Below the pieces are notes generated by a model. That model did not search any database. It saw only the letters and a list, made by a program, of their open reading frames with translations, and was not told the origin of the DNA. Below are positions 10,700-33,576 of a DNA stretch of 64,000 nt, piece after piece (the first letter of the stretch is position 1; every line of letters begins with the position of its first letter). Origin of the DNA: Escherichia coli (GTDB lineage Bacteria; Pseudomonadota; Gammaproteobacteria; Enterobacterales; Enterobacteriaceae); the NCBI RefSeq assembly GCF_001677475.2, contig NZ_CP015229.1; one strand, given 5' to 3'. Position numbers and translations under genes: made by a program.

Positions 10700-12748
10700 T
10701 CACACCAGACCGCAAACGGTCAGCAGTAAATCAATGACTTTGATACCAATAAACGGCACCAGCAGCCCACCCAGACCGTAAATCCATAAGTTACGGCGCA
10801 ACATGGCAGAAGCGGTAAGCGGTTTATAACTCACGCCTTTTAACGCCAGGGGAATCAAAAAGACGATAATCAAGGCGTTGAAAATGACCGCACTGAGAAT
10901 GGCGGAGTCGGGCGAATGCAGGCGCATGATGTTCAGCGCATTTAACTGTGGATACGTTGCCGCGAATGCCGCCGGAATAATGGCGAAGTATTTCGCCACA
11001 TCGTTGGCAATGCTGAAGGTGGTCAGCGAGCCACGGGTCATCAGCATCTGTTTGCCAATGTGCACCACCTCGATCAACTTGGTCGGGTTAGAGTCGAGAT
11101 CCACCATATTGCCCGCTTCTTTCGCCGCCTGAGTACCGGAGTTCATCGCTACCGCGACATCTGCCTGCGCCAGCGCCGGAGCATCGTTGGTGCCATCGCC
11201 GGTCATCGCCACTAAACGGCCTTCCGCCTGATACTGACGAATCAATGCCAGCTTGGCCTCCGGTGTCGCTTCGGCGAGAAAATCATCGACACCCGCTTCC
11301 GCAGCAATCGCGGCGGCAGTCAGACGGTTATCGCCGGTAATCATCACCGTTTTAATGCCCATTTTACGCAACTGCGCGAAGCGTTCTTTAATGCCGCCTT
11401 TGACGATATCTTTCAGCGCAATAACGCCCAGCACACGGGAACCTTCCACCACCACCAGCGGCGTGGCTCCCTGACGCGCAATCTGATCGACTTTTTGATC
11501 AACATCGGCTGGGAAGTGACCACCATTAGCCTCAACATGGCGGCGAATGGCATCGACAGAACCTTTACGGATCATGCGGTTGTCGATGTTGATCCCGCTC
11601 ATCCGGCTTTGCGCAGTAAACGGTACAAAGGTGGCATGGAGCGACTGCACATCGCGCTCGCGCAGGTTAAAACGCTGCTTGGCGAGGATCACAATACTGC
11701 GGCCTTCCGGCGTTTCATCAGCCAGCGAAGCCAGTTGTGCGGCGTCAGCCAGCGTTTTTTCATCCACGCCCTGCGCGGGGATAAACTCCGACGCCTGACG
11801 GTTACCGAGTGTGATGGTGCCGGTTTTATCCAGTAGCAGAACGTCAACGTCACCTGCCGCTTCAACTGCACGTCCGCTGGTGGCAATCACATTCGCGCCC
11901 AGCATCCGACTCATCCCGGCGACGCCGATCGCTGACAACAGGCCGCCAATAGTGGTTGGGATCAGACAGACCAGCAGCGCCACCAGTACCGTTACACTCA
12001 CTGCATTACCGCCCCACGCGGAAAACGGCCACAGCGTGGCGGTTGCCAGTAAAAAGACGATAGTCAGGGCAATCAGGAGAATGGTCAGGGCAATCTCGTT
12101 CGGCGTTTTGCGTCGCTGTGCGCCTTCCACCATCGCGATCATCCTATCCAGAAATGTCTCGCCGGGGTTAACGCTGCACTCAATCACCAGCCAGTCAGAA
12201 AGAATACGCGTGCCGCCAGTGACGGAGGCAAAATCGCCGCCGGATTCACGGATCACCGGTGCCGATTCCCCGGTGATGGCGCTTTCATCGACCGATGCCC
12301 CCCCTTCAATAACTTCACCATCGCAGGGGATAATATCGCCAGCTTCTACCAGTACGATATCGCCTTTACGCAGTTGATCGGCAGGTACTTTGTCCGCCGC
12401 AGCGCCATATTTCGGCTCACGCAGCTTGCGGGCAAAGGCAGTTTTTTTCACCCCTTTCAGACTGTTGGCCTGCGCTTTACTGCGGCCTTCTGCCAGCGCC
12501 TCGGCGAAATTAGCGAACAGTACGGTGACCCACAGCCAGCCGCTAATTGCCGCGCTAAACAGCGCATTGCCAGGCATCGCACCGCTTGCCATCGCGATGC
12601 TAATACAGGTGGTCAGCAGACTGCCGATCCAGACGATAAACATCACCGGATTGCGCCATTGCGCCTGCGGGTTTAATTTTTTCACCGCTTCTTTCAGCGC
12701 CTGAACGACAAGTGTTGGTTCGAATAGCGCCAGTTGTTTACGACTCAT
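10700..12748 (-). CDS. kdpB: K+-transporting P-type ATPase subunit KdpB (682 aa)
   Basis: [31 protein letters not shown]...; DKTGT phosphorylation motif; P-type ATPase. Confidence 0.95.
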
Positions 12749-12770
12749 ATTCAGTGCTCACTCAATATCA

Positions 12771-14444
12771 TCAGGAGAGATATTCCGCCACCGGACCAAG
12801 CGCCAGGGCAGGGATAAAGGTCAGTGCGCCAACCAGCAATACGGTGCCGATTAACAGGCCAACAAACAGCGGGCCGTGCGTTGGCAGCGTGCCGGAGCTG
12901 GCGGGTTGGCTCTTTTTACTCACCAGCGAACCGGCAATTGCCATCACCGGGATAATCACCCCGAAGCGACCGACAAACATGCAGAACGCCAGTAAACAGT
13001 TCCAGAACGGAGAGTTGGCGCTTAATCCGGCAAAGGCGCTGCCGTTGTTGTTAGCGGCGGACGACACGGCGTACAGCACTTCGCTAAAACCATGCGGGCC
13101 AGGGTTGAGCATGGCGCTACGTCCGGCGTCGGTCATCATTGCCAGCGCCGCGCCCATCAGCACCAGCGTCGGGGTGACCAGAATCGCCAGCGCGGTCAAT
13201 TTCATCTCGCGTACGTCGATTTTTTTACCCAGATATTCCGGTGTACGACCAATCATCAGCCCGGCAATAAACACCGCCAGCAGGACGAACAGCATCATGC
13301 CGTAAAGACCAGAACCGACACCGCCGAATACCACTTCACCAATTTGCATCAGCCACATCGGCACCATGCCACCAAGAGCGGTAAACGAATCATGCATCGC
13401 AATCACCGCGCCGCAGGAAGCCGCCGTAGTCACGACCGCAAACAGGCTACTGACCAGCACGCCGAAACGACTCTCTTTACCTTCCATATTGATGCTGCTG
13501 TCCGCGCCCAGTGCCAGCAGATGCGGATTACCCTGAACTTCTGCCCACATCACCACGCCTGTGCAGATGATAAAAATCACTGACATCGCCCACAGCAACA
13601 TGCGCCCCTGGCGGCGATCGCCCGCCACTTCACCAAAGGCAAAGCACAGCGCTGTTGGGATCAAGAAGATCGCCAGCATCTGCACGAAGTTGGTCAGTGC
13701 GGTTGGGTTTTCAAACGGATGCGACGAGTTGGCATTAAAGAAGCCACCACCGTTAGTGCCGAGCATCTTGATCGCTTCCTGAGAAGCCACCGGACCCATT
13801 GGTAACAGCTGTTTCGCTCCTTCAACGGTATTCACCGCCTGATAGGGCAGAAAGTTTTGCAGTGCACCTTGTTGAATAAAAAACAGTGCGATCAACAACG
13901 CCACAGGGACTAGCACCCATAACGTGATGCGTAGCAGATCGACCCAGGCATTCCCGAGTGTGCTCATGCTCTGGCGGGTAAATGCACGGATGAGGGCAAA
14001 AATCACCGCAATCCCGCTGGCGGCAGAAAGAAAGTTTTGCACCGTTAAGCCCGCCATCTGGCTGAAATAGCTCAACGTGGTTTCACCGCTGTAAGATTGC
14101 CAGTTGGTATTCGTGACAAAGCTGACGGCGGTATTCAGCGCCAGATCCCATGACAGTCCCGGCAACTGCTGCGGATTAAGCGGCAGATAGTGCTGACCGA
14201 GCAACATAAAAAACAGCACCGCCAGCCCCAGCATATTCAGGCCAAGAATGGCTGAGAGATACTGCTTCCAGTTCATCTCGCGGTCAGAGACGCCAAGCGC
14301 GCTAAAGAGTACGCGTTCAACGCCCGTCGTACCAGGAAGAGGAATATCATTAATCAGCCGCGCCAGCCCGCTGCCTAAAGGACGTGCCAGTACCATTAAC
14401 ACCAGTAAAAACGTGGCGATCAGTAAGAACCCTTGCGCAGCCAT
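12771..14444 (-). CDS. kdpA: K+-transporting ATPase subunit KdpA (557 aa)
   Basis: ORF 12771..14588 contains [38 protein letters not shown]; start chosen at MAAQGF (14444). Confidence 0.93.
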
Positions 14445-14533
14445 CAGAACGCCTCCGCATTGATCAGGGCATAAACCAGATAACCCAGTAATAAAAACAC
14501 CAGCAACACGCCGGCTATCACGCCTGCACTCAC
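14444..14533 (-). CDS. kdpF: KdpF small membrane subunit (29 aa, GTG start)
   Basis: Reverse strand GGAGG-N6-GTG AGT GCA GGC… gives (M)[32 protein letters not shown] overlap with kdpA start. Confidence 0.85.
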
Positions 14534-14611
14534 AGTGCACCTCCAGTGGCCTAAAAGTGATACCGGAAGGGTAGAATTCTGGCTGCAAAGATTTCGCAAA
14601 AATCTTCGGGC

Positions 14612-14640
14612 GGGATGTAAAAAAAGTATAAAAATGGCAA
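14612..14640 (-). promoter_or_regulatory. kdpFABC promoter with KdpE-binding box
   Basis: Reverse strand reads CATTTTTATACTTTTTTTACATCCCGCCCG about 80 bp upstream of kdpF, matching the KdpE operator as I recall it. Confidence 0.55.
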
Positions 14641-14845
14641 AAGCCATGATTTAACTGATGGTTAGTATTAATTTAACTTTTGTGTAACTTAATTACAGTG
14701 TGAATGTAAATAAACCATCAATAAGCAAAAATAAGTGGTCGGATGAGTAGTAAAATTACACAAAAGGCGGTACTATTTTCATCAGATAAACAAATTCATT
14801 TTTCCGGTGCCATTCACCGGGTAGATACAAAAGGGGGAGAAAAGT

Positions 14846-15052
14846 ATGGAACTCTACAGAGAATATCCTGCATGGCTTATCTTTTTACGCCGTACTTATG
14901 CGGTTGTAGCGGGCGTCCTGGCGCTGCCTTTCATGCTTTTCTGGAAAGACCGCGCCCGCTTTTACAGCTACCTGCATCGCGTCTGGTCGAAAACCAGCGA
15001 TAAACCGGTGTGGATGGATCAGGCCGAAAAGGCAACTGGTGATTTTTACTGA
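14846..15052 (+). CDS. ybfA: YbfA (DUF2517 small protein, 68 aa)
   Basis: [71 protein letters not shown]; preceded by AGGGGGAGAAAAGT RBS. Confidence 0.9.
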
Positions 15053-16054
15053 TTGCCTGCGCGTTTAAGCCAGCCTCGTATCAGGGGGCTGGTTTAGGCG
15101 TTTTGAATCAACGGGTTCCATGGTGTTGTTCATTTAATCACTGTTTTAGTATCAATTTTCAATAGTATCCTTTCATAGGACTACTCTGGATGCGTTCACC
15201 TTCATTGTCGCTCTAAGCAACTAGATCCTCAGAAATCTCCAGTTAGGTTGCATCCTTCCTTACACACTTTCCTGAAACTTCAGGGTAAGGTGAGAAAGCC
15301 GCCATCACTTTTTCTTATTCCAGCATCTAAATAAATTCCGAATTTTGCTATTAATATCGCTACCGCAATAAAAACAGATAGTAAAGAGAGTAATATATAC
15401 TTTAGTGATATGTTAAGAATAATTGATTGTTAACATATCTAATGGGATAAGATGTGTTTCTGTTAATGAAAATATTCAAGATTTATAGTTGATAATTAAA
15501 ATACACTCGATATCTCAGCCCTTTCTATGCAAGATGCAATTTTATAAGCTGTCCATTTTTTATATGGAGGCGGTAGCGTGTTTGTTACTCGTGATTTTAT
15601 TGGTATGGTGAATATGTTGGGATTGTTAAATACATAACGGCATATCAGTTCCGGTCATTGTAAATATGGGTAATTGCTTAATGTTATTAGTGATTACCGT
15701 TTGAAAGATAAAGAGTGCTGTAAAGCGGTGATAGACATTACATTCATGATTAAAAAACAGAACCTGTCAATAAATAATTCATTTATTAAAAAGGACGACT
15801 TCTATTATGACGGAATATTATCTCAATGAGACGGTTTGCAAATACAGAGCCAGTTTCTCCGGGGTAACGAGCAGGTGTACCAGTGTCAGGTGGCATTTGT
15901 ATTGCCGGGTGAGCGGGTCATGATGGCCTTCACCTACGCCCGAACCACACCGCTGACCCCGGCAGATATGACGCGCTGGGCTGAAATTAAAAAGAATCTG
16001 CGCTTCAGGATGCGGCAGGAAGCCGGGACGAATTAATCACACAGGGAACGGGAC

Positions 16055-19000
16055 ATGGAAGAGGCATTCTGGGCGGCAAGGCAGGGTGATGCCCTGCTGC
16101 ATACGTCGTTTATGGCAGATGTGCTGGGGGCAGTTGTAGAGGTTGCCGCCACAGCCCTGGTGGATGTTCTGGTTGTCGGAACCATGGCGGCGCTGGGCGG
16201 AGTTGAAGTGGCAACGCTGGGCTGCTCAACCATTTTAGCGATCGGTATAGCAACAGCGGTATTTATGTCGTATCAGGGCTGGAATGACCGAATCAGTAGG
16301 GAAAGTGAGCAACTGGCGAACTGGCTTTTCCCGCCTCAGATTGAAGGTTACATCCTCACCGGCTCTGGCGACACATGGATCAACAGCAAACCTGCCGCGC
16401 GGGCCGCGGCGACTGCGGCATCGCGGCAGGACATTGAGGCGCAGGAGGCGCAGGCGAAGGCGGAACAGGAAGAAGCGCAGCGTCAGGAGGATGCCAGAAC
16501 GTTCCTGGATGTGGCCGGGGAATATCTGGAAATGGCGGGGGCCATAGCCCTGGCGGTTAACCCGGTGACAGGGCCTGTGCTGATGTCCCGGGCGCTGCAC
16601 GACCAGCTCAGTACGGAAGAAGGGCGTTCTGAAATGGTGGATGGCGTGACACATTTTGTGTCGGAACTATGGCAGCCCACCGTGGCCAGTGCGGCCCCGG
16701 GCTCCACCCCGACCCCTGACGATAAAATCGACTGCCATAAACATCCCTCCTCACTGACGCAGTTTCTCGCACAAAAAAAAGCCGCCTTTCTGGATGACCC
16801 CCTGGGAACGGCCCTTAACCTGCTGAGTCCGGGCGGTATGCTGGAAACCGCCTTTCAGGGAGTGAATGCGGTTATTGGCAGCATCAGTAATCTGTTCAAA
16901 GGCGATGATGAACCGCCCGCAGCGGAATATATCGCGGAAGGCGCGCGGGATGTGCGTATCAACAGCCAGCCGGCGGCACGCAGCGGGGCACGCTGCACCT
17001 GCGAGGCCAGGGTGGTGAATGAGCCGGGGAACGGGGCGTTTGTGTCACCGGATGTCCGCATTGGCGGTCCGTTACTGGTGGTCAGGGATATCAGAAGCGG
17101 CAGGTCGCAGATAACCCTGGTGGCAACCGTGGCGCTGATGTTTCTTCGCCCGGGCAAAATGCTTTCTAAAATCGCCTGTTTTGCTGCCAGTGTCGGGATG
17201 GGGGTGATGACGCAGAAGGCCATCAGTGCCCTTCCGCATCCGGTCAATGCCGCCACCGGAGCCAAATATCTGGCCGATGACGATGATTTTGACTTCAGTC
17301 TGCCGGGCCACTTTCCGCTGGACTGGCAGCGCGTGTACAGCAGTCGTGACGACCGCACGGAAGGGATGTTCGGGCAGGGCTGGAGTGTAATGTATGAAGT
17401 CAGCCTCGAGCGCACGCCGGGTACTGCTGACGAAAACTGTATGACCTTTGTGTCGGGCATGGGACGACGTCTGGATATGGAGGCCGTGCTGCCGGGGAGC
17501 GGGTTTTACAGCCCCGGCGAAGGACTGGCAGTACGGCGGGGTGAGCAGGGGCACTGGCTTATCAGCAGCGATGACGGGCAGTTTTTTCTGTTTGAGGCCG
17601 ACCCGCGTCACCCGCAGCGCCAGCGGCTGAAAATGCTGGGCGACCGCAACAGCAACTGTCTGAATCTGTACTACGACGAGCTGGGGCGCATCACGCAAAT
17701 CAGCGGTGAACAGCAGCGTCCGTGCATCCGTCTGCATTATGAACTGGCGGCGCATCCCCGGCGGGTGACACAGATTTATCAGCATTTCCCTGAGATGGCT
17801 CCTTTACTGCTGCGTCGTTACCGCTATGACGAGGCCGGCGACCTGAACGGCGTGTACGACAGCACGGGGCACCTGCTGCGCGAGTTTGCTTACGACGAAA
17901 ACCACTGCATGACCCTGCACCGCCAGCCGGGCGGCGAAGGGTATTATTACCAGTGGGGCTGGTATGAAGGCCCGGATGACGCAGCGTGGCGGGTGACGGG
18001 GCACCACACGGACAGCGGTGAACAGTACCGGCTGGCGTGGAGCCTGGCGGCACGCAGGCTGTGCGTGACGGACGGGCTGGGGCGCACGCGTTATCATCAG
18101 TGGGACGCGCAAAATCAGGTGACGGCGTACCAGGACGAAGCCGGGCAGGTGACGACGTTCCGCTGGAGCGACGAAGAACGGCTGTTACTGGGAATGACCG
18201 ATGCGCAGGGCGGCAAATGGCGCTATGTGTATGACCGGCAGGGGCATATCACGGAGACGCACGACCCGCTGGGGCGGGTGGCACAGACACAGTGGCACCC
18301 GGTGTGGCACCAGCCGGAAACGGAGGTGGACGCGGCGGGGAACAGCTGGTGCTGTGAGTACGATGAACGCGGCAATCTTCTTGCGGTGACCGACCCGCTG
18401 CAGCAGAACACCCGGTATCAGTATGACCGCCACGGCCAGGTGGTGCAGATAACGGATGCGCGCGGGGGGAATAAATACCTTCAGTGGAACGAAGACGGGC
18501 AGCTCATGCGGCACACGGACTGTTCCGGCTCGCAGACGGCCTGGTTCTACGACGAACGCACGCGGCTGATACGGATGACAGACGCGCAGAGCCACAGCAC
18601 GCGCTACGGGTATGACGACAGCGGCCACCTGACGGAGGTGATACTGGCGGACGGCCGCACGGTGAATTACCAGTCGGACGCGGCGGGCAGGCTGGTGAAG
18701 TACACCAGCCCGATGGGGAGGATAACGCGCTGGCAGCGGGACGGGCAGGGCCGGGTGCGCAGCCGGACAGACGCGACGGGGCGCAGGACGGCGTTCGGGT
18801 ACGATGCCTACGGGCGTCTGGTCACGCTCACGAACGAGAACGGAGAAAGCTACCGGTTCCGCCATGACGTGCTGGACCGTCTGGCGGAGCAGATAAATCC
18901 GGACGGCTGCCGCCAGACGTACCGCTACAACGCGCTGAACGCGGTCACGGAAGTGGTGTTCACCGGGGACCGGGGCGGTGAAATCCGCCACCGGCTGGCA

Positions 19001-20737
19001 CGTGATGCGGCGGGCCGGCTCACGGCAAAGGAGACAGCCGATGGCCATACGGAATACGTCCATGATGCGGCAGACCAGCTACTGGAAATCCGCCGCCGAC
19101 GGTCGGATGCCGGGGAAACAGACGCACCGGAGATTATCCGTTTCAGTTACGACAGACTGGGGCGGATGCTGACCGAGGAGACGGCGCAGGGCGTCCTGAC
19201 CCATCAGTACGATGAACTCAGCAACCGGACAGCCACCACCTTTCCGGATGGCAGAACGCAGCGTCATCTGTACTACGGCAGCGGCCATCTCCAGCAGATA
19301 AATCTGGACCGGGAGGTCATCAGCGAGTTCACACGTGACGCCCTGCACCGGGAAGTGCTCAGAAGTCAGGGGCGACTGAGCACGCGGCAGCTTTATGACC
19401 CCGCCGGGCGGCTGAAGCGCAGGGAGACATACAGCGGGATGCGCGGGGTGGTACCGGAGACGTTCACGGACCGGCAGTACAGCTACAGCGGCGAGGATGA
19501 ATTGCTGAAGACGCGGCACAGCCGGCGGGGGGAAACGGATTACTTCTACGACCCCACGGGGCGCATCACGGCGTGCCGCTCGGAGGATGAGAGGTATCTG
19601 GCGAGCTGGCAGTACGACGCGGCGGGAAACCTGCTGGGGAGGCGCGCGGGGGAAAGGGCCACGGCAGAAAACAGCGTGGTGCCGTTCAACCGGCTGATGT
19701 CTTACCGTGGTGTGCACTACCGTTATGACGAATTTGGCCGGACGGTGGAAAAGGAGGGCCGGAGCGGCACGCAGAGTTACCGTTATGATGCGGAACACCG
19801 GATGGTGGAAGTGACGACAGCGCGGGGGACATACCGGTATGTGTACGATGCGCTGGGGAGGCGGACGGAAAAACAGCACATCAGCCCTGACGGTAAACCG
19901 TACAACCGGACGACATTTTTATGGGACGGAATGCGGCTGGCGCAGGAGAGCAGGCCGGAGGGAATAAGCAGCCTGTATATCTACAGCGACCCGGGGAGTT
20001 ATGAACCGCTGGCGCGGGTGGATAAGGCGGGCAAAGAGGGCCCGAACCGGATACTGTATTTTCACACGGATGTGAACGGTGCGCCGGAAGAGATGACGGA
20101 CAGTGACGGGAAAATCGTGTGGGAGACGGGGTATCAGGTCTGGGGTAACACGATACAGGAGAAGGACCACGGCGGGGTGGAGCAGAACCTGCGCTACCAG
20201 GGACAGTACCTCGACAGGGAAACGGGGCTGCATTACAATCTGCACAGGTACTATGATCCGGATGTCGGGCGGTTCATGGTAACGGACCCGATAGGGCTGG
20301 CGGGGGGACTGAATCTTTACCAATACTCACCGAATCCAATAAGTTGGATCGACCCGCTGGGATTAACAGGGGAGTGGGTTAATCCCAAAGATATTAATTT
20401 TTCTCAAAGAACAATATCACCTCATGATTATGCCGATATTATGCGTAATGGTGGTTGGGATTGGGACAGGTCTCCATTAAGAGTAATTGATATTGATGGG
20501 CAATTAGTTTCTTATGATAATAGGCGATTAGACGCAGCTCTAGAGGCCGGATTAGATAAGGTTAAAGTCATTAGAGTTGACCCTAATGCTCCTCATCCTG
20601 ACTCATCTACTGGAAAAACATGGTTACAAAAATTCCGAGAGAGATTTAGAGATCGAAGAAATATAAAGGCCGGTGGAATAGTACCAGATAAAGGATTAAA
20701 TTCTCGACCGGAAAGAACATCAAGAGGTTGCAAATGA
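16055..20737 (+). CDS. Rhs-family polymorphic toxin: prePAAR motif, hydrophobic segments, PAAR-like motifs, YD-repeat core, C-terminal toxin (about 20363..20734)
   Basis: 1560-aa ORF; N-terminus AARQGDALLH (AARxxDxxxH) then hydrophobic stretch, INSKPAAR and INSQPAAR motifs, second hydrophobic stretch; many YD repeats; core ends [40 protein letters not shown] followed by a 124-aa variable tail. Confidence 0.9.
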   Translation: MEEAFWAARQGDALLHTSFMADVLGAVVEVAATALVDVLVVGTMAALGGVEVATLGCSTILAIGIATAVFMSYQGWNDRISRESEQLANWLFPPQIEGYILTGSGDTWINSKPAARAAATAASRQDIEAQEAQAKAEQEEAQRQEDARTFLDVAGEYLEMAGAIALAVNPVTGPVLMSRALHDQLSTEEGRSEMVDGVTHFVSELWQPTVASAAPGSTPTPDDKIDCHKHPSSLTQFLAQKKAAFLDDPLGTALNLLSPGGMLETAFQGVNAVIGSISNLFKGDDEPPAAEYIAEGARDVRINSQPAARSGARCTCEARVVNEPGNGAFVSPDVRIGGPLLVVRDIRSGRSQITLVATVALMFLRPGKMLSKIACFAASVGMGVMTQKAISALPHPVNAATGAKYLADDDDFDFSLPGHFPLDWQRVYSSRDDRTEGMFGQGWSVMYEVSLERTPGTADENCMTFVSGMGRRLDMEAVLPGSGFYSPGEGLAVRRGEQGHWLISSDDGQFFLFEADPRHPQRQRLKMLGDRNSNCLNLYYDELGRITQISGEQQRPCIRLHYELAAHPRRVTQIYQHFPEMAPLLLRRYRYDEAGDLNGVYDSTGHLLREFAYDENHCMTLHRQPGGEGYYYQWGWYEGPDDAAWRVTGHHTDSGEQYRLAWSLAARRLCVTDGLGRTRYHQWDAQNQVTAYQDEAGQVTTFRWSDEERLLLGMTDAQGGKWRYVYDRQGHITETHDPLGRVAQTQWHPVWHQPETEVDAAGNSWCCEYDERGNLLAVTDPLQQNTRYQYDRHGQVVQITDARGGNKYLQWNEDGQLMRHTDCSGSQTAWFYDERTRLIRMTDAQSHSTRYGYDDSGHLTEVILADGRTVNYQSDAAGRLVKYTSPMGRITRWQRDGQGRVRSRTDATGRRTAFGYDAYGRLVTLTNENGESYRFRHDVLDRLAEQINPDGCRQTYRYNALNAVTEVVFTGDRGGEIRHRLARDAAGRLTAKETADGHTEYVHDAADQLLEIRRRRSDAGETDAPEIIRFSYDRLGRMLTEETAQGVLTHQYDELSNRTATTFPDGRTQRHLYYGSGHLQQINLDREVISEFTRDALHREVLRSQGRLSTRQLYDPAGRLKRRETYSGMRGVVPETFTDRQYSYSGEDELLKTRHSRRGETDYFYDPTGRITACRSEDERYLASWQYDAAGNLLGRRAGERATAENSVVPFNRLMSYRGVHYRYDEFGRTVEKEGRSGTQSYRYDAEHRMVEVTTARGTYRYVYDALGRRTEKQHISPDGKPYNRTTFLWDGMRLAQESRPEGISSLYIYSDPGSYEPLARVDKAGKEGPNRILYFHTDVNGAPEEMTDSDGKIVWETGYQVWGNTIQEKDHGGVEQNLRYQGQYLDRETGLHYNLHRYYDPDVGRFMVTDPIGLAGGLNLYQYSPNPISWIDPLGLTGEWVNPKDINFSQRTISPHDYADIMRNGGWDWDRSPLRVIDIDGQLVSYDNRRLDAALEAGLDKVKVIRVDPNAPHPDSSTGKTWLQKFRERFRDRRNIKAGGIVPDKGLNSRPERTSRGCK

Positions 20738-21168
20738 AAAATATTATTCAGTTATGGGAAGATGGTTTATTACCGATAAAAGATGCTATTTACTTTTCTA
20801 ACGGTGAATCTTTCCTTTGTAAAATAACATCTTACCCTACTCCTTGTATTGAGAAAAATGGTGAGTTTGATTTCTCTGCCTTTTATGAAAAAAATAAAGA
20901 TGAAGTTACTGATATTGATAAGTCTAGAGAAGTTAAATTAGCGAATAATTGCTATTGTTGCATTGGAGAAGGTAGTTATGGTTCTGAAGGATTTATCGCA
21001 TATCTCGATGAAAATAAAAACTTAGTTTGGGTTCTTTATTCCGAAGAATCTAATCCATTTATTAATATAACTGAATATACATCTGATATTATTATAGTAG
21101 AATCAAGTTCTAATATTAGACTAAGAATAAATATAAACAATCCAGTGGATTTAGAATTGGCATTTTAA
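20734..21168 (+). CDS. putative Rhs immunity protein for the main C-terminal toxin (144 aa)
   Basis: ATG overlaps the rhs stop (ATGA); sharp drop in GC relative to the rhs core; position immediately after the toxin; no recognisable domain. Confidence 0.7.
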   Translation: MKNIIQLWEDGLLPIKDAIYFSNGESFLCKITSYPTPCIEKNGEFDFSAFYEKNKDEVTDIDKSREVKLANNCYCCIGEGSYGSEGFIAYLDENKNLVWVLYSEESNPFINITEYTSDIIIVESSSNIRLRININNPVDLELAF

Positions 21169-21212: not shown

Positions 21213-21542
21213 TTAACTCTCGTTCAGCACACTAAACATCCCGTTCCGCATCCCCTTAACCACCTGTTTAACCTGATAAAGTTCTTCCCGCAGCTCCTGC
21301 ACCTCGTCACTGTCAGCGATGATGGTCAGGTACCCCTCCGAAATCTTCACCGTGACACCCCGCCCGGTATCAAATCCCGCCTCAGCCAGCCAGTCGCCCT
21401 TGAGGTGCAGGCTGGGATGTTGTGAATAATACCGGGCTATACCTGTTGTGCGGTCCTGGTGGCGGGTTCTGACATAGCCGACTTTATAGCGGCGCTGGGT
21501 TTTGGAAATGGTGACTTCTGGCGTAATATCGTGTTCAGCCAT
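21213..21542 (-). CDS. SymE-family protein (type I toxin-like, AbrB/SpoVT fold), full length 109 aa
   Basis: …LHLKGDWLAEAGFDTGRGVTVKISEGYLTIIAD… aligns with my recollection of E. coli SymE (…[33 protein letters not shown]…); ATG start. Confidence 0.7.
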   Translation of the reverse strand: MAEHDITPEVTISKTQRRYKVGYVRTRHQDRTTGIARYYSQHPSLHLKGDWLAEAGFDTGRGVTVKISEGYLTIIADSDEVQELREELYQVKQVVKGMRNGMFSVLNES

Positions 21543-21781
21543 GATTAACTACTCCTGTTAGTTGCTTGTGGTGAGCGGCTGTTACAGGCGGCAACCTGTA
21601 GCAGTCGCGTTAAATATCAACGCATTACCTTCATTACCTGCTTCATCTTCTCCTGGGTGATCGCCATATCCAGAATACGGCAGATCACTTCCTGATCGTC
21701 TGCTTTAAGCTCATCAACCTGCTTACACAGTTCTTTTAACCGCTTGTTTTTTATATCGAAAACATCGCGGAAGAAGAAGGT

Positions 21782-31329: not shown

Positions 31330-31734
31330 GATCCGATAGGGCTAAGAGGCGGGCTGAACCTGTATGCTTATGCGCCTAATCCGCTGAAATATATTGATCC
31401 ACTCGGATTAAAAAAAGAGCTCTGTAATGGAACTACTCGTGTGCGGCATTATACTAATCGTAAAGGTTCAAATGCGATTGCTGAAAGTGGGATAATTAAG
31501 GCGCATGATAACGGTCGTGTATATTTGGAACCTGCGAATAAAAAACCACTCAGTCAAGTAGACATAGAGGCGAAATATCAAATAGGTCGTGGGAAAGGTA
31601 GAGATTATGTGGATACAGATGTATCTAACGAGCAATTAGAGTGGGTAACAAACCCTCGATATCATATAGATGAATTGACTGTGAAAGGTGATATTATTCT
31701 TTCTGAAAATGCAAAAATAACTCGGCGTAAATAA
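31330..31734 (+). CDS. orphan Rhs C-terminal toxin cassette D (starts at the DPIGL core tail; no ATG, in-frame GTG at 31441)
   Basis: In-frame DPIGLRGGLNLYAYAPNPLKYIDPLGLKKELCNGTTRVRHYTNRKGSNAIAESGIIKAHDNGRVYLEP…; frame opens after a stop at about 31315. Confidence 0.65.
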   Translation, partial: DPIGLRGGLNLYAYAPNPLKYIDPLGLKKELCNGTTRVRHYTNRKGSNAIAESGIIKAHDNGRVYLEPANKKPLSQVDIEAKYQIGRGKGRDYVDTDVSNEQLEWVTNPRYHIDELTVKGDIILSENAKITRRK

Positions 31735-31735
31735 T

Positions 31736-32062
31736 ATGAATAAAAACAATGATGTAATTAATATACCCGGAAAGGATGCCCTTTATATTCTAAGTGAGGT
31801 AGAGTACATATTGATATCACTTAAGAATATTGCAAGGTATTATTTCAATGGTATAGAACAGAACGTTATTGATGATAAATTGTTGAATTCTTACTTTAAA
31901 GAAACCACTAAATTTATTGATGATAAAAATATTACACATCGATTGGCTGAAATAAGAAGGGTTATTACTGAAAATTTTAATACTGATCTTGGAGATGATG
32001 ATATGGATGATATTGAGAGAGAAATAGAAAAGATAAAATGTTGGGAGAAGCCGGGTGATTAA
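31736..32062 (+). CDS. putative immunity protein for orphan toxin D (108 aa)
   Basis: AT-rich ORF starting 2 bp after the toxin stop; acidic C-terminus. Confidence 0.65.
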   Translation: MNKNNDVINIPGKDALYILSEVEYILISLKNIARYYFNGIEQNVIDDKLLNSYFKETTKFIDDKNITHRLAEIRRVITENFNTDLGDDDMDDIEREIEKIKCWEKPGD

Positions 32063-32597: not shown

Positions 32598-33576
32598 CAG
32601 GGAAAGATCACGTAACGCTACTTTTTTGTACTAAATAATTGGCATTTTATGTTTAAAAATTGAGATATTCCTCATTACCTAAAGCTGTTTTTTTATTGCT
32701 TATACATGATCAAGTACTCCTTACATAATTAAGGAGAACAAAATGGAACTTAAAAAATTGATGGAACATATTTCTATTATTCCCGATTACAGACAAGCCT
32801 GGAAAGTGGAGCATAAATTGTCAGATATTCTACTGTTGACTATTTGTGCCGTTATTTCTGGTGCAGAAGGTTGGGAAGGTATAGAGGATTTTGGGGAAAC
32901 ACATCTCGATTTTTTGAAGCAATATGGTGATTTTGAAAATGGTATTCCTGTTCACGATACTATTGCCAGAGTTGTATCCTGTATCAGTCCTGCAAAATTT
33001 CATGAGTGCTTTATTAACTGGATGCAAGATTGCCATACTTCAGATGATAAAGACGTCATCGCAATTGATGGAAAAACACTTCGGCATTCTTATGACAAGC
33101 GTCGCCGCAAGGGAGCGATTCATGTCATTAGTGCGTTCTCAACAATGCACAGTCTGGTCATCGGACAGCTCAAGACGGATGAGAAATCTAATGAGATTAC
33201 AGCTATCCCTGAACTTCTTAACATGTTGGATATTAAAGGAAAAATTATCACAACTGATGCGATGGGTTGCCAGAAAGATATCGCAGAGAAGATACAAAAA
33301 CAGGGCGGTGATTATTTATTCGCTGTAAAAGGAAATCAGGGGCGGCTTAATAAAGCCTTTGAGGAAAAATTTCCACTGAAAGAATTAAATAATCCAGAGC
33401 ATGACAGTTACGCAATGAGTGAAAAGAGTCACGGCAGAGAAGAAATCCGTCTTCATATTGTTTGCGATGTCCCTGATGAACTTATTGATTTTACGTTTGA
33501 ATCGAAAGGGCAGCTATGGACAGAAACTACCTGACGTCAGTCCTTGCGGGGAGCGGGCTTTCGTAATCTTGCCCTG
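32598..33576 (+). mobile_element. H-repeat (ISAs1-family) element, copy 2, internally deleted (about 0.3 kb missing), no target duplication
   Basis: Same termini as copy 1 (CAGGGAAAGATCACG…CGTAATCTTGCCCTG); transposase ORF jumps from …FTFE to the element's final about 15 codons; flanks differ. Confidence 0.7.
32743..33534 (+). pseudogene. ybfD: H-repeat-associated transposase, truncated (263 aa; YbfD-like)
   Basis: N-terminal 250 aa about 95% identical to the copy at 26521; C-terminus replaced by [10 protein letters not shown] through the internal deletion; sits next to ybgA as ybfD does in K-12. Confidence 0.6.

Follow-up and report, generated by a model that had tools for sequence, protein, structure and literature searches.

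A class I prePAAR Rhs effector at the ybfA/rhsC site of Escherichia coli, preceded by the remnants of vgrG and eag genes

Introduction

Can an Rhs effector of the kind exported by a type VI secretion system (T6SS) still be delivered when no intact chaperone gene stands beside it? The question is raised by an rhs gene in a 64-kb stretch of Escherichia coli chromosome (RefSeq assembly GCF_001677475.2, contig NZ_CP015229.1), which we call the window and which surrounds kdpFABC-ybfA, at the site occupied by rhsC in K-12. An earlier note, made from the sequence alone, had read the product of this gene as a class II prePAAR effector with hydrophobic stretches on both sides of its PAAR motifs, and had remarked that ybfA and a 1-kb AT-rich gap were all that stood upstream of it, with neither an Eag chaperone gene nor T6SS genes nearby.

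Two classes of prePAAR effector have been distinguished (Ahmad et al. 2020, PMC7773334). Those of class I are Rhs-type proteins of more than 1000 amino acids (about 1200) with one transmembrane domain (TMD) region, placed before PAAR; those of class II are of ~450 amino acids, have no Rhs cage, carry a TMD on both sides of PAAR and contain the motif GxxxxGxxLxGxxxD. A genome with a class I effector is also expected to contain an Eag (DUF1795) gene, as a rule directly upstream. In E. coli, vgrGO1 and eagR are reported to be needed for delivery of the Rhs C-terminus by T6SS1, and Rhs genes without VgrG or helper neighbours have been noted (Ma et al. 2017 via PMC6730261; Shiga toxin-producing E. 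coli O22:H8 preprint 10.1101/2024.03.05.583533). Our literature search found no paper on the arrangement described below.

Here, we analyze the architecture of the protein, the DNA that precedes its gene and the corresponding loci of related genomes. The explanation that we consider best, and think rather probable, is that the window carries a class I prePAAR Rhs effector at a secondary site, ybfA/rhsC, where the cis copies of vgrG and eag have been destroyed, and that this effector is delivered with the aid of paralogous helpers and of the T6SS called T6SS-1.

Predicted Architecture and Class of the Rhs Protein

Judged by domain models and alignments, the product of the window rhs belongs to a known group of proteins, the class I prePAAR Rhs effectors of type VI secretion, and is a canonical example of them. 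The predicted order is prePAAR, one TMD region, a split PAAR, a linker of seal peptide and anchor helix, an N-terminal autocleavage site, a plug, the cocoon, a C-terminal autoprotease and a 123-aa toxin of ParB/sulfiredoxin (Srx) fold, with a candidate immunity gene next to it. The features as far as the autoprotease are the following.

16055..20737, + strand: rhs gene, predicted class I prePAAR Rhs effector, 1560 aa
16073..16102, + strand: prePAAR motif AARQGDALLH, residues 7-16
16103..16273, + strand: single N-terminal TMD region, residues 17-73, predicted Eag-binding site
16343..16408, + strand: first PAAR segment, residues 97-118, with INSKPAAR at 109-116
16409..16924, + strand: variable insertion splitting PAAR, residues 119-290, with an acidic, helix-prone start
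16925..17089, + strand: second PAAR segment, residues 291-345, with INSQPAAR at 302-309
17111..17239, + strand: linker with the second hydrophobic stretch, residues 353-395, predicted seal peptide and anchor helix, predicted autocleavage between H395 and P396
17237..17473, + strand: plug or cork domain DUF6531, residues 395-473, with a conserved acidic run DDDD at 408-411
17789..20032, + strand: Rhs/YD-repeat cocoon, residues 579-1326
20132..20365, + strand: Rhs-associated core and C-terminal autoprotease motif DPIGL(x17)DPLGL, residues 1411-1437

The start codon of this open reading frame (ORF) is annotated identically in near-identical RefSeq loci, those of AR_0077 and CT265 among them, and the protein is matched by the NCBIfam models RHS_core, YD_repeat_2x and Rhs_assc_core and by Pfam RHS and RHS_repeat, the latter 13 times. 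The prePAAR signature, the two PAAR-like motifs and the hydrophobic region that the earlier note had placed at about residues 20-75 are all present at the positions listed; motifs, hydropathy and the Pfam and NCBIfam domains agree with its general description of a prePAAR/TMD/PAAR Rhs effector of type VI kind. In 16 homologues W6, A7, A8, R9, D12, L14 and H16 are nearly invariant, so AARQGDALLH is no chance match. The motif aligns with the prePAAR of Photorhabdus Tre23 (7pq5, residues 33 onward), a protein homologous to the window N-terminus through its prePAAR and PAAR segments alike.

Hydropathy was judged by simple scales (Kyte-Doolittle and Hessa type) rather than by a trained transmembrane predictor. 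In the whole 1560-aa protein, a 19-residue Kyte-Doolittle mean of at least 1.5 is reached in residues 17-73 alone, and the Hessa-scale sums are lowest at residues 52-70 (0.35 kcal/mol) and 30-48 (3.3 kcal/mol). This region is identical to the TMD of an Rhs protein that is paired with an intact Eag at the ansP locus of related genomes. The PAAR profile search proposed in the earlier note places Pfam PAAR_motif (PF05488) at residues 291-321 (model positions 39-69, E=1.9e-5) and a second piece, weak alone, at 97-118 (model positions 8-29, E=1.7). Alignment to Pseudomonas protegens RhsA and to Tre23, together with invariant columns in the homologue alignment, marks the first segment as well, and the second aligns to RhsA from residue 131 onward. 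The split of the domain by some 170 aa is a feature of the family; the insertion is partly alignable to RhsA, and homologues from Caballeronia and metagenomes lack two of its blocks. An AlphaFold2 model of residues 1-480, built on a 16-sequence alignment, had a mean predicted local distance difference test (pLDDT) of 33.6; it did not confirm the PAAR fold and was not used. Beyond the linker the cork is recognized by Pfam PF20148 (E=5.9e-19) and aligns with that of RhsA, including the DDD at 318-320 of the latter; NCBIfam RHS_core extends over the cocoon with ten YD_repeat stretches, accompanied by Pfam RHS_repeat hits, and TIGR03696 matches residues 1360-1437 (E=1e-28).

The protein thus has the properties of class I: its prePAAR lies at the extreme N-terminus, its sole TMD region comes before PAAR and PAAR after it, and its 1560 aa include an Rhs cage. 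Those of class II are wanting, given the size, the presence of the cage and the absence both of a second TM-like segment and of the motif GxxxxGxxLxGxxxD, so that the class II architecture proposed in the earlier note has to be replaced by class I. The second hydrophobic stretch on which that proposal leaned (at about residues 355-390) does exist; it is not, however, TM-like, since over residues 353-391 the Kyte-Doolittle mean peaks at 1.2, three basic residues (R365, K368 and K372) lie inside it and its Hessa-scale cost is 6.4-6.7 kcal/mol. A PDB sequence search aligns residues 77-481, the second stretch included, with P. protegens RhsA (7q97, E=6e-56), in whose structure a seal peptide (268-275) and an amphipathic anchor helix (289-302) lie inside the cocoon, just ahead of the cleavage site H304/P305 and of the cork that comes next (PMC8765631). 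In the aligned pair (a slash marks the cut) the window protein reads ...RPGKMLSKIACFAASVGMGVMTQKAISALPH/PVNAATGAKYLADDDD and RhsA reads ...GKGKFLSNLPCMLMAGVNSFVVSQ...ASTH/PVHAATGAKVLGADDD; the linker is matched to ...KGKFLSNLPCMLMAGVNSFVVSQ...ASTH/PVHAATGAK of RhsA, and at the predicted N-terminal cleavage site itself ALPH/PVNAATGAKYLADDDD falls opposite ASTH/PVHAATGAKVLGADDD. By this alignment the RhsA/Tre23-type autocleavage features (cleavage site, anchor helix and DUF6531 cork) are present in the window Rhs. The second stretch also occurs in class I archetypes, namely RhsA and the Salmonella enterica Rhs homologues found here, and residues 353-391 are predicted to be an intracocoon seal and anchor rather than a second TMD.

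Remnants of vgrG and eag Upstream of rhs

The apparent absence of Eag disappears once the DNA upstream of rhs is read in all frames. What the earlier note took for ybfA followed by an AT-rich gap comprises three elements, of which the spacer proper is but the first.

15053..15724, no strand assigned: AT-rich spacer between ybfA and the island, absent from K-12
15725..15757, + strand: vgrG 3'-end remnant, about 33 nt, codons for AVIDITFMIKK
15807..16036, + strand: eag (DcrB/DUF1795 chaperone) pseudogene

The GC content of the spacer is 33-40%, and K-12 ceases to be homologous at 15056. Ten other E. coli genomes of this arrangement match the spacer at 98-99% identity, and strain EC554 does so at 93% over spacer positions 64-529. 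The vgrG remnant corresponds to the VgrG C-terminus, ...AIDVAFMTKK and stop, of an operon at the ansP locus. Positions 15727-15836 of the window match the vgrG end, intergenic spacer and eag start of that operon (13P477T, locus sequence L002, 19672-19785) with 75% identity and E=6e-18. Pairwise alignment to the intact 453-nt eag of a related genome shows that 15807-15836 are its first 30 nt including the ATG (27/30 identical) and 15837-16036 its last 200 nt, identical except by the junction; an internal deletion of 223 bp separates the two and shifts the frame, and the pseudogene ends 18 nt before the rhs start codon. A three-frame reading of the gap finds that the ATG at 15807 opens MTEYYLNETV and that a 66-codon ORF in another frame ends at 16036.

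The intact paralogue is recognized by Pfam DcrB (PF08786) over residues 19-137 (E=1.1e-18), whereas NCBIfam searches with the intact Eag and with the remnant gave no meaningful family. Compared with the complete DcrB domain of ~150 aa, the remnant keeps codons 1-10 and carries residues 85-150 out of frame; it is homologous to an Eag gene but, judged from its sequence, cannot encode an Eag chaperone. RefSeq (prokaryotic genome annotation pipeline) labels it "DcrB-related protein, incomplete" in eight of the ten inspected relatives, AR_0077 among them, and an incomplete hypothetical protein in the other two. A mini-chaperone, encoded by the 66-aa ORF with a TTG start (15836-16036) or by a 38-aa ORF with an ATG start (15807-15923), was considered and rejected, as residues 11-84 of the DcrB domain are missing.

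In EC554 ybfA and the spacer are followed at this same site by an ISEc1 element, and an intact 150-aa eag stands between that element and rhs, which shows the window form to be a deletion derivative. The eag and vgrG remnants together identify the locus as the stump of a vgrG-eag-rhs module. The earlier note was therefore right that no functional Eag gene is encoded in cis, the sole candidate being a frameshifted deletion pseudogene. A DUF1795 gene directly upstream, which it had regarded as decisive against its reading, is represented in the window by that pseudogene, not by an intact gene, and is intact in EC554 at the same locus.

Also in agreement with the earlier note, no T6SS core genes were recognized within the 64-kb window; this judgment draws on ORF sizes throughout and, for the part of the window that the annotated flanks of CT265 cover, on synteny as well. 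A promoter and terminator scan of 14700-16300 returned one promoter-like site (15750-15778) against 3.6 expected from shuffles; with fewer sites than in the shuffles, it says nothing on expression. With its cis eag crippled, the toxin must use helper genes elsewhere in the genome or be silent.

Helper Genes and T6SS in Related Genomes

Of 5426 complete E. coli genomes, 169 contain the 2.6-kb stretch that runs from ybfA through spacer and remnant into rhs, with at least 80% of it at a single location. Homology to eag of any extent occurs in 212 genomes, with a full-length copy in 199 of them, so that at least 156 of the 169 carry a full-length eag and at most 13 do not. In the loci inspected the full-length copy lies beside ansP, in an operon of vgrG, the DcrB-related gene and rhs. 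Over residues 1-1418 the Rhs protein of this ansP locus and that of the window share 98.9% identity. In strain MDR_56, which has both loci, the ybfA and ansP proteins agree at 440/440 positions over residues 1-440 and at 958/960 over 441-1400, and only the toxin differs; the first 100 residues of the window Rhs, TMD included, are identical (100/100) to both MDR_56 copies.

Two sharply distinct alleles of the TMD region (Rhs residues 28-90, window 16136-16324) were observed, in which about 40 of the 63 residues differ while the N-termini are otherwise near-identical. The window has the allele of the ansP locus, and the alternative one is found at the ybfA locus of EC554 (where eag is intact), 13P477T, 2009C-3133 and 2014C-3338. 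The Eag proteins of EC554 and of the ansP locus are only three residues apart.

The distribution of secretion systems was examined by appending T6SS gene fragments to a locus-specific anchor and counting the places matched per genome. A weak extra match among the T6SS probes led to the T6SS-1 at the argA/amiC (metV) locus, where the cluster itself was seen in E166. The tssK and tssM probes taken from the E166 cluster find matches in 51 of the 60 closest genomes, with CT265, the closest of all, among them. Probes of the 55989 Sci-1 type and of the T6SS-2 at aspV had no high-identity match in almost any of the 30 closest genomes listed, and the aspV site of CT265 contains a CP4-like island and no T6SS.

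As to the lineage of the window, its housekeeping flank kdpB-kdpA-ybfA (11000-15050) is 97-98% identical to ten E. coli genomes (and ~97% to K-12 over the part compared), unlike the island spacer, which is 99% identical to most of the same ten. The lineage is thus unrepresented among complete genomes, and the island looks horizontally shared. No complete E. coli genome contains the same 19-kb island; the best match has 69% coverage and 94% identity.

Maintenance of the Gene and Its Possible Delivery

Besides the window, ten relatives with a truncated eag were inspected. The Rhs ORF is intact in eight of them (AR_0077, CT265, Res13-Lact-PER13-34, VCSW7, ETEC1738, 2009C-3133, APEC E14033 and MDR_56), and at least six different immunity genes lie behind the intact copies (of the MafI family, of the barstar family and several for hypothetical proteins). 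Intact frames and varied immunity genes favor an effector gene that is still in use. In MDR_56 the ybfA copy is the only Rhs of the family seen with an uninterrupted toxin; in 13P477T the ybfA copy is itself frameshifted. The ansP-locus rhs of MDR_56 (locus sequence L019, ~11720-11745) and of 13P477T has a +1 frameshift in a poly-G run between its two DPxGL motifs; the annotated 1458-aa protein of that locus is without the second DPxGL motif and the toxin, which continue out of frame. A sequencing error in the homopolymer could explain this frameshift, as could decay or phase variation.

The toxin of the window is most likely loaded in trans. Having the architecture and the pseudogene before us in the window, and the paralogous module and T6SS-1 in related genomes, we infer that the window strain also possesses the helper genes, that its rhs is transcribed and that trans-loading works. 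EagR from the vgrG-eagR-rhs operon at the ansP locus would shield the TMD (residues 17-73), prePAAR and PAAR would then mount the Rhs protein on the VgrG of the same operon, and the T6SS-1 of the argA/amiC (metV) locus would fire the loaded spike. The N-terminal fragment would be cut between H395 and P396 and stay attached via the anchor helix; the toxin, cut after DPLGL at residue 1437, would be freed in the target cell. The toxin tips differ between the two rhs loci, whereas recombination between these loci would maintain one and the same loading module (residues 1 to ~1400). That a chaperone can be encoded at a distance from its effector is known from P. protegens EagT2/Tne2 and Shigella SF3490/SF0266 (PMC7773334).

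A broader version of this idea, which we offer tentatively and as possible rather than expected, is that one VgrG/EagR pair at ansP serves two Rhs effectors at separate sites, whose loading modules are kept identical by recombination and whose tips differ, and that the second locus could for this reason dispense with its own chaperone and spike genes in cis, which decayed. In MDR_56 this division of labor looks complete among the genes inspected: the rhs next to the helpers at ansP is frameshifted, and it is the ybfA locus that has the intact toxin. The two alleles of residues 28-90, as an exchangeable TMD cassette, would add a further layer.

Several observations weigh against delivery in trans. 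No complete genome closely matches the window strain: flanks are 97-98% identical, at most 69% of the island is covered, and the helpers are known from relatives. The vgrG promoter is gone, and the AT-rich spacer offers no convincing promoter. Trans-loading of a second Rhs is, in this family, something that we infer. Nine of the 60 closest genomes gave no match to the T6SS-1, Sci-1-type or T6SS-2 probes, the aai-type T6SS-3 being unprobed, and all nine are among the 17 genomes whose best match is the ybfA-locus copy itself. (AR_0077, VCSW7, ETEC1738 and Res13-Lact-PER13-34 are examples of probe-negative genomes; all nine have two places matching the eag-rhs anchor, and the four inspected have an intact Rhs at ybfA.) The ybfA-locus Rhs of 13P477T and 2014C-3338 is frameshifted, at two different positions, and two independent frameshifts point to relaxed selection. 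Together with the relatives in which no T6SS was detected, they indicate that decay also happens.

Such decay is the core of an alternative that we consider unlikely, in which the locus is a silent reserve copy: having lost vgrG, promoter and eag, the ybfA rhs would no longer be expressed or exported, and its persistence would be owed to a recent date of the deletion in each lineage, to continual refreshment by recombination with the active copy at ansP, or to retention of the locus for its immunity genes and as a reservoir of toxin tips for C-terminal displacement. The eag pseudogene and vgrG remnant, the frameshifts just described, the nine probe-negative genomes, an AT-rich upstream region whose promoter signal is no better than chance and, downstream, orphan rhs tips and immunity genes in the kind of array that characterizes storage loci would all be expected of it. 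It accords poorly, however, with a 4.7-kb ORF that is intact in the window and in eight of ten relatives sharing the same old deletion junction, with tips and immunity genes that vary between strains, so that the locus is evidently still turning over as a full-length effector gene, and with the state of the ansP-locus copy, which in MDR_56 and 13P477T is frameshifted just before the toxin, leaving ybfA as the only place in MDR_56 where an uninterrupted toxin was seen. Highly improbable, in our estimation, is a role independent of T6SS, in which the toxin and immunity pair would act inside the producer as a toxin-antitoxin-like or stress module. Some close genomes with an intact Rhs gave no T6SS probe match, and such a role is claimed for Salmonella rhs elements (PMC7043789); yet the whole delivery module (prePAAR, TMD, PAAR and plug) is conserved to the residue, which would be unexpected were export irrelevant. 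Finally, the hydrophobic stretches flanking the PAAR motifs and the lack of an intact eag in cis might suggest a hybrid Rhs protein with a TMD on both sides of PAAR that is now independent of an Eag chaperone. This we find hardly credible at all: the second stretch, far costlier to insert than the real TM helix at 0.35 kcal/mol, is shared by the class I archetypes and corresponds to the seal and anchor of RhsA, the protein lacks the class II motif, and both the eag remnant and the intact-eag allele at the locus speak of an Eag-associated lineage.

Toxin Tip, Candidate Immunity Gene and Downstream Island

The distal end of the gene and the frame that follows it are as follows.

20366..20734, + strand: C-terminal toxin domain, residues 1438-1560, predicted ParB/Srx fold, Tox-ParBL1-like
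20728..21168, + strand: candidate immunity gene, 146 aa, overlapping the rhs stop by 10 nt

Neither product has a significant match in Pfam, NCBIfam or among PDB sequences (for the toxin the best are Pfam Ntox47, E=0.11, and a PDB entry at E=0.13), and the second is named a candidate immunity gene for its position and ORF. Apart from the window, the two occur together in just one of the 5426 complete E. coli genomes, A34. The AlphaFold2 model of the toxin has a pLDDT of 94.6, and the top 50 PDB matches found by Foldseek all belong to the ParB/Srx superfamily (sulfiredoxin, ParB, Noc, SbnI, serine kinase and KorB), with modest E values, 1.4e-3 at best, and TM-scores of ~0.4-0.56. The 58 homologues of the toxin come from Salmonella, Serratia, Pantoea, Streptomyces, Ruminococcus (on a HINT scaffold), Gilliamella and others. 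Within their motifs NFSQR and SYDNRR, R15 and Y50-R54 are invariant and N11 and S13-Q14 occur in at least 90%.

Beyond the immunity candidate the island continues with further rhs-related sequence. Orphan Rhs C-terminal tips lie at 25060-25790, 27727-28391, 28746-30815 and 31441-32062, each followed by a small candidate immunity ORF, and one of these modules consists of a 590-aa Rhs core fragment with DPxGL motifs of its own and a toxin. SymE-like type I toxin genes or fragments are found on the minus strand at 21213-21542, 25837-26070, 28453-28695 and 30903-31136; they trail the main rhs-immunity pair and three of the four orphan tip/immunity modules, a pattern repeated in relatives (RefSeq). 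Copies of ISEc1/ISAs1 are interspersed among the orphan tips, one complete (26376-27667) and one partial (32598-33534). The otherwise AT-rich island also contains a GC-rich block (59-68%) at 21700-24950, whose ORFs (21782-22861, 22937-23941 and 23613-24095) include a fragmentary DNA-primase-like sequence and a frameshifted XerC-like tyrosine recombinase. Related GC-rich blocks lie behind the ybfA-locus rhs of EC554 and behind Rhs genes of further genomes.

Several lessons of a general nature may be drawn. When an Rhs protein seems to be without a chaperone, pseudogene remnants and paralogous helper operons should be checked before it is called chaperone-independent, and a moderately hydrophobic stretch after PAAR in Rhs effectors is to be read as intracocoon seal and anchor, not as a second TMD. 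Trans-loading, if true, shows how the toxin repertoire of E. coli can grow without duplication of spike and chaperone genes. The ParB/Srx-fold tip is an uncharacterized type of toxin, phylogenetically widespread and rare in E. coli, which could merit biochemical study; it and the idea of trans-loading are the only parts of this work that might repay experiments.

Comparison with Known Systems

K-12 RhsC (b0700) shares with the window gene its insertion site between ybfA and ybgA, the Rhs repeat core, ISAs1/H-repeat elements and orphan tips downstream. The two proteins differ at their N-termini, as the earlier note had surmised: RhsC starts with MSGKPAARQGD, has neither a prePAAR motif nor a TMD and, when aligned, is ~31% identical to the window Rhs in the repeat core only; the two belong to separate Rhs clades. 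The K-12 locus is also without the AT-rich spacer and the eag remnant.

For the toxin the nearest described family is Tox-ParBL1, defined in silico by a ParB fold, a conserved N-terminal Ser and a motif [NT][RT][RT] that replaces DGHHR (Zhang et al. 2012, PMC3482391). The conserved Ser (S13) and N52-R53-R54 of the window toxin fit this account, the comparison being with the description and not with a family profile. The predicted likeness extends to the ParB/Srx fold, to the Ser in NFSQR and the N-R-R in SYDNRR and to an occurrence on Rhs and HINT scaffolds across phyla; the classical DGHHR motif is absent from the window toxin. A ParB-fold toxin of contact-dependent inhibition (CDI), ToxB, was recently reported to be an ATPase (bioRxiv 10.64898/2026.05.05.722872); it and the window toxin are alike at the level of fold class, the sole level compared.

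The Rhs homologues of Salmonella enterica have the same layout as the window protein and 59% identity over the whole 400-aa N-terminal query. They presumably include Rhs1 (SL1344_0286), the protein co-crystallized with SciW. The E. coli Eag paralogue is colinear with SciW (6xrr/6xrb), residues 32-124 against 35-127, if weakly (E ~2e-3). In the literature Rhs1 of Salmonella Typhimurium lies inside the SPI-6 T6SS cluster, whereas the window rhs is far from any T6SS gene. The vgrGO1-eagR-PAAR-Rhs islands of E. coli encode the same protein family; the window copy, at ybfA/rhsC, retains only remnants of vgrG and eagR.

The class I archetype is the RhsA/EagR1/VgrG1 system of P. protegens (7q97; PMC8765631, PMC7773334). 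RhsA has the same order of prePAAR, one TMD, split PAAR, seal and anchor, an H/P site followed by PV.AATGAK and an acidic run, DUF6531 cork, cocoon, DPxGL autoprotease and small toxin; the PAAR insertion of the window protein is ~80 aa longer, and the toxins are unrelated. RhsA is encoded directly after vgrG1 and eagR1, both of which are needed for its delivery, whereas in the window the vgrG and eag that once stood in cis have been destroyed.

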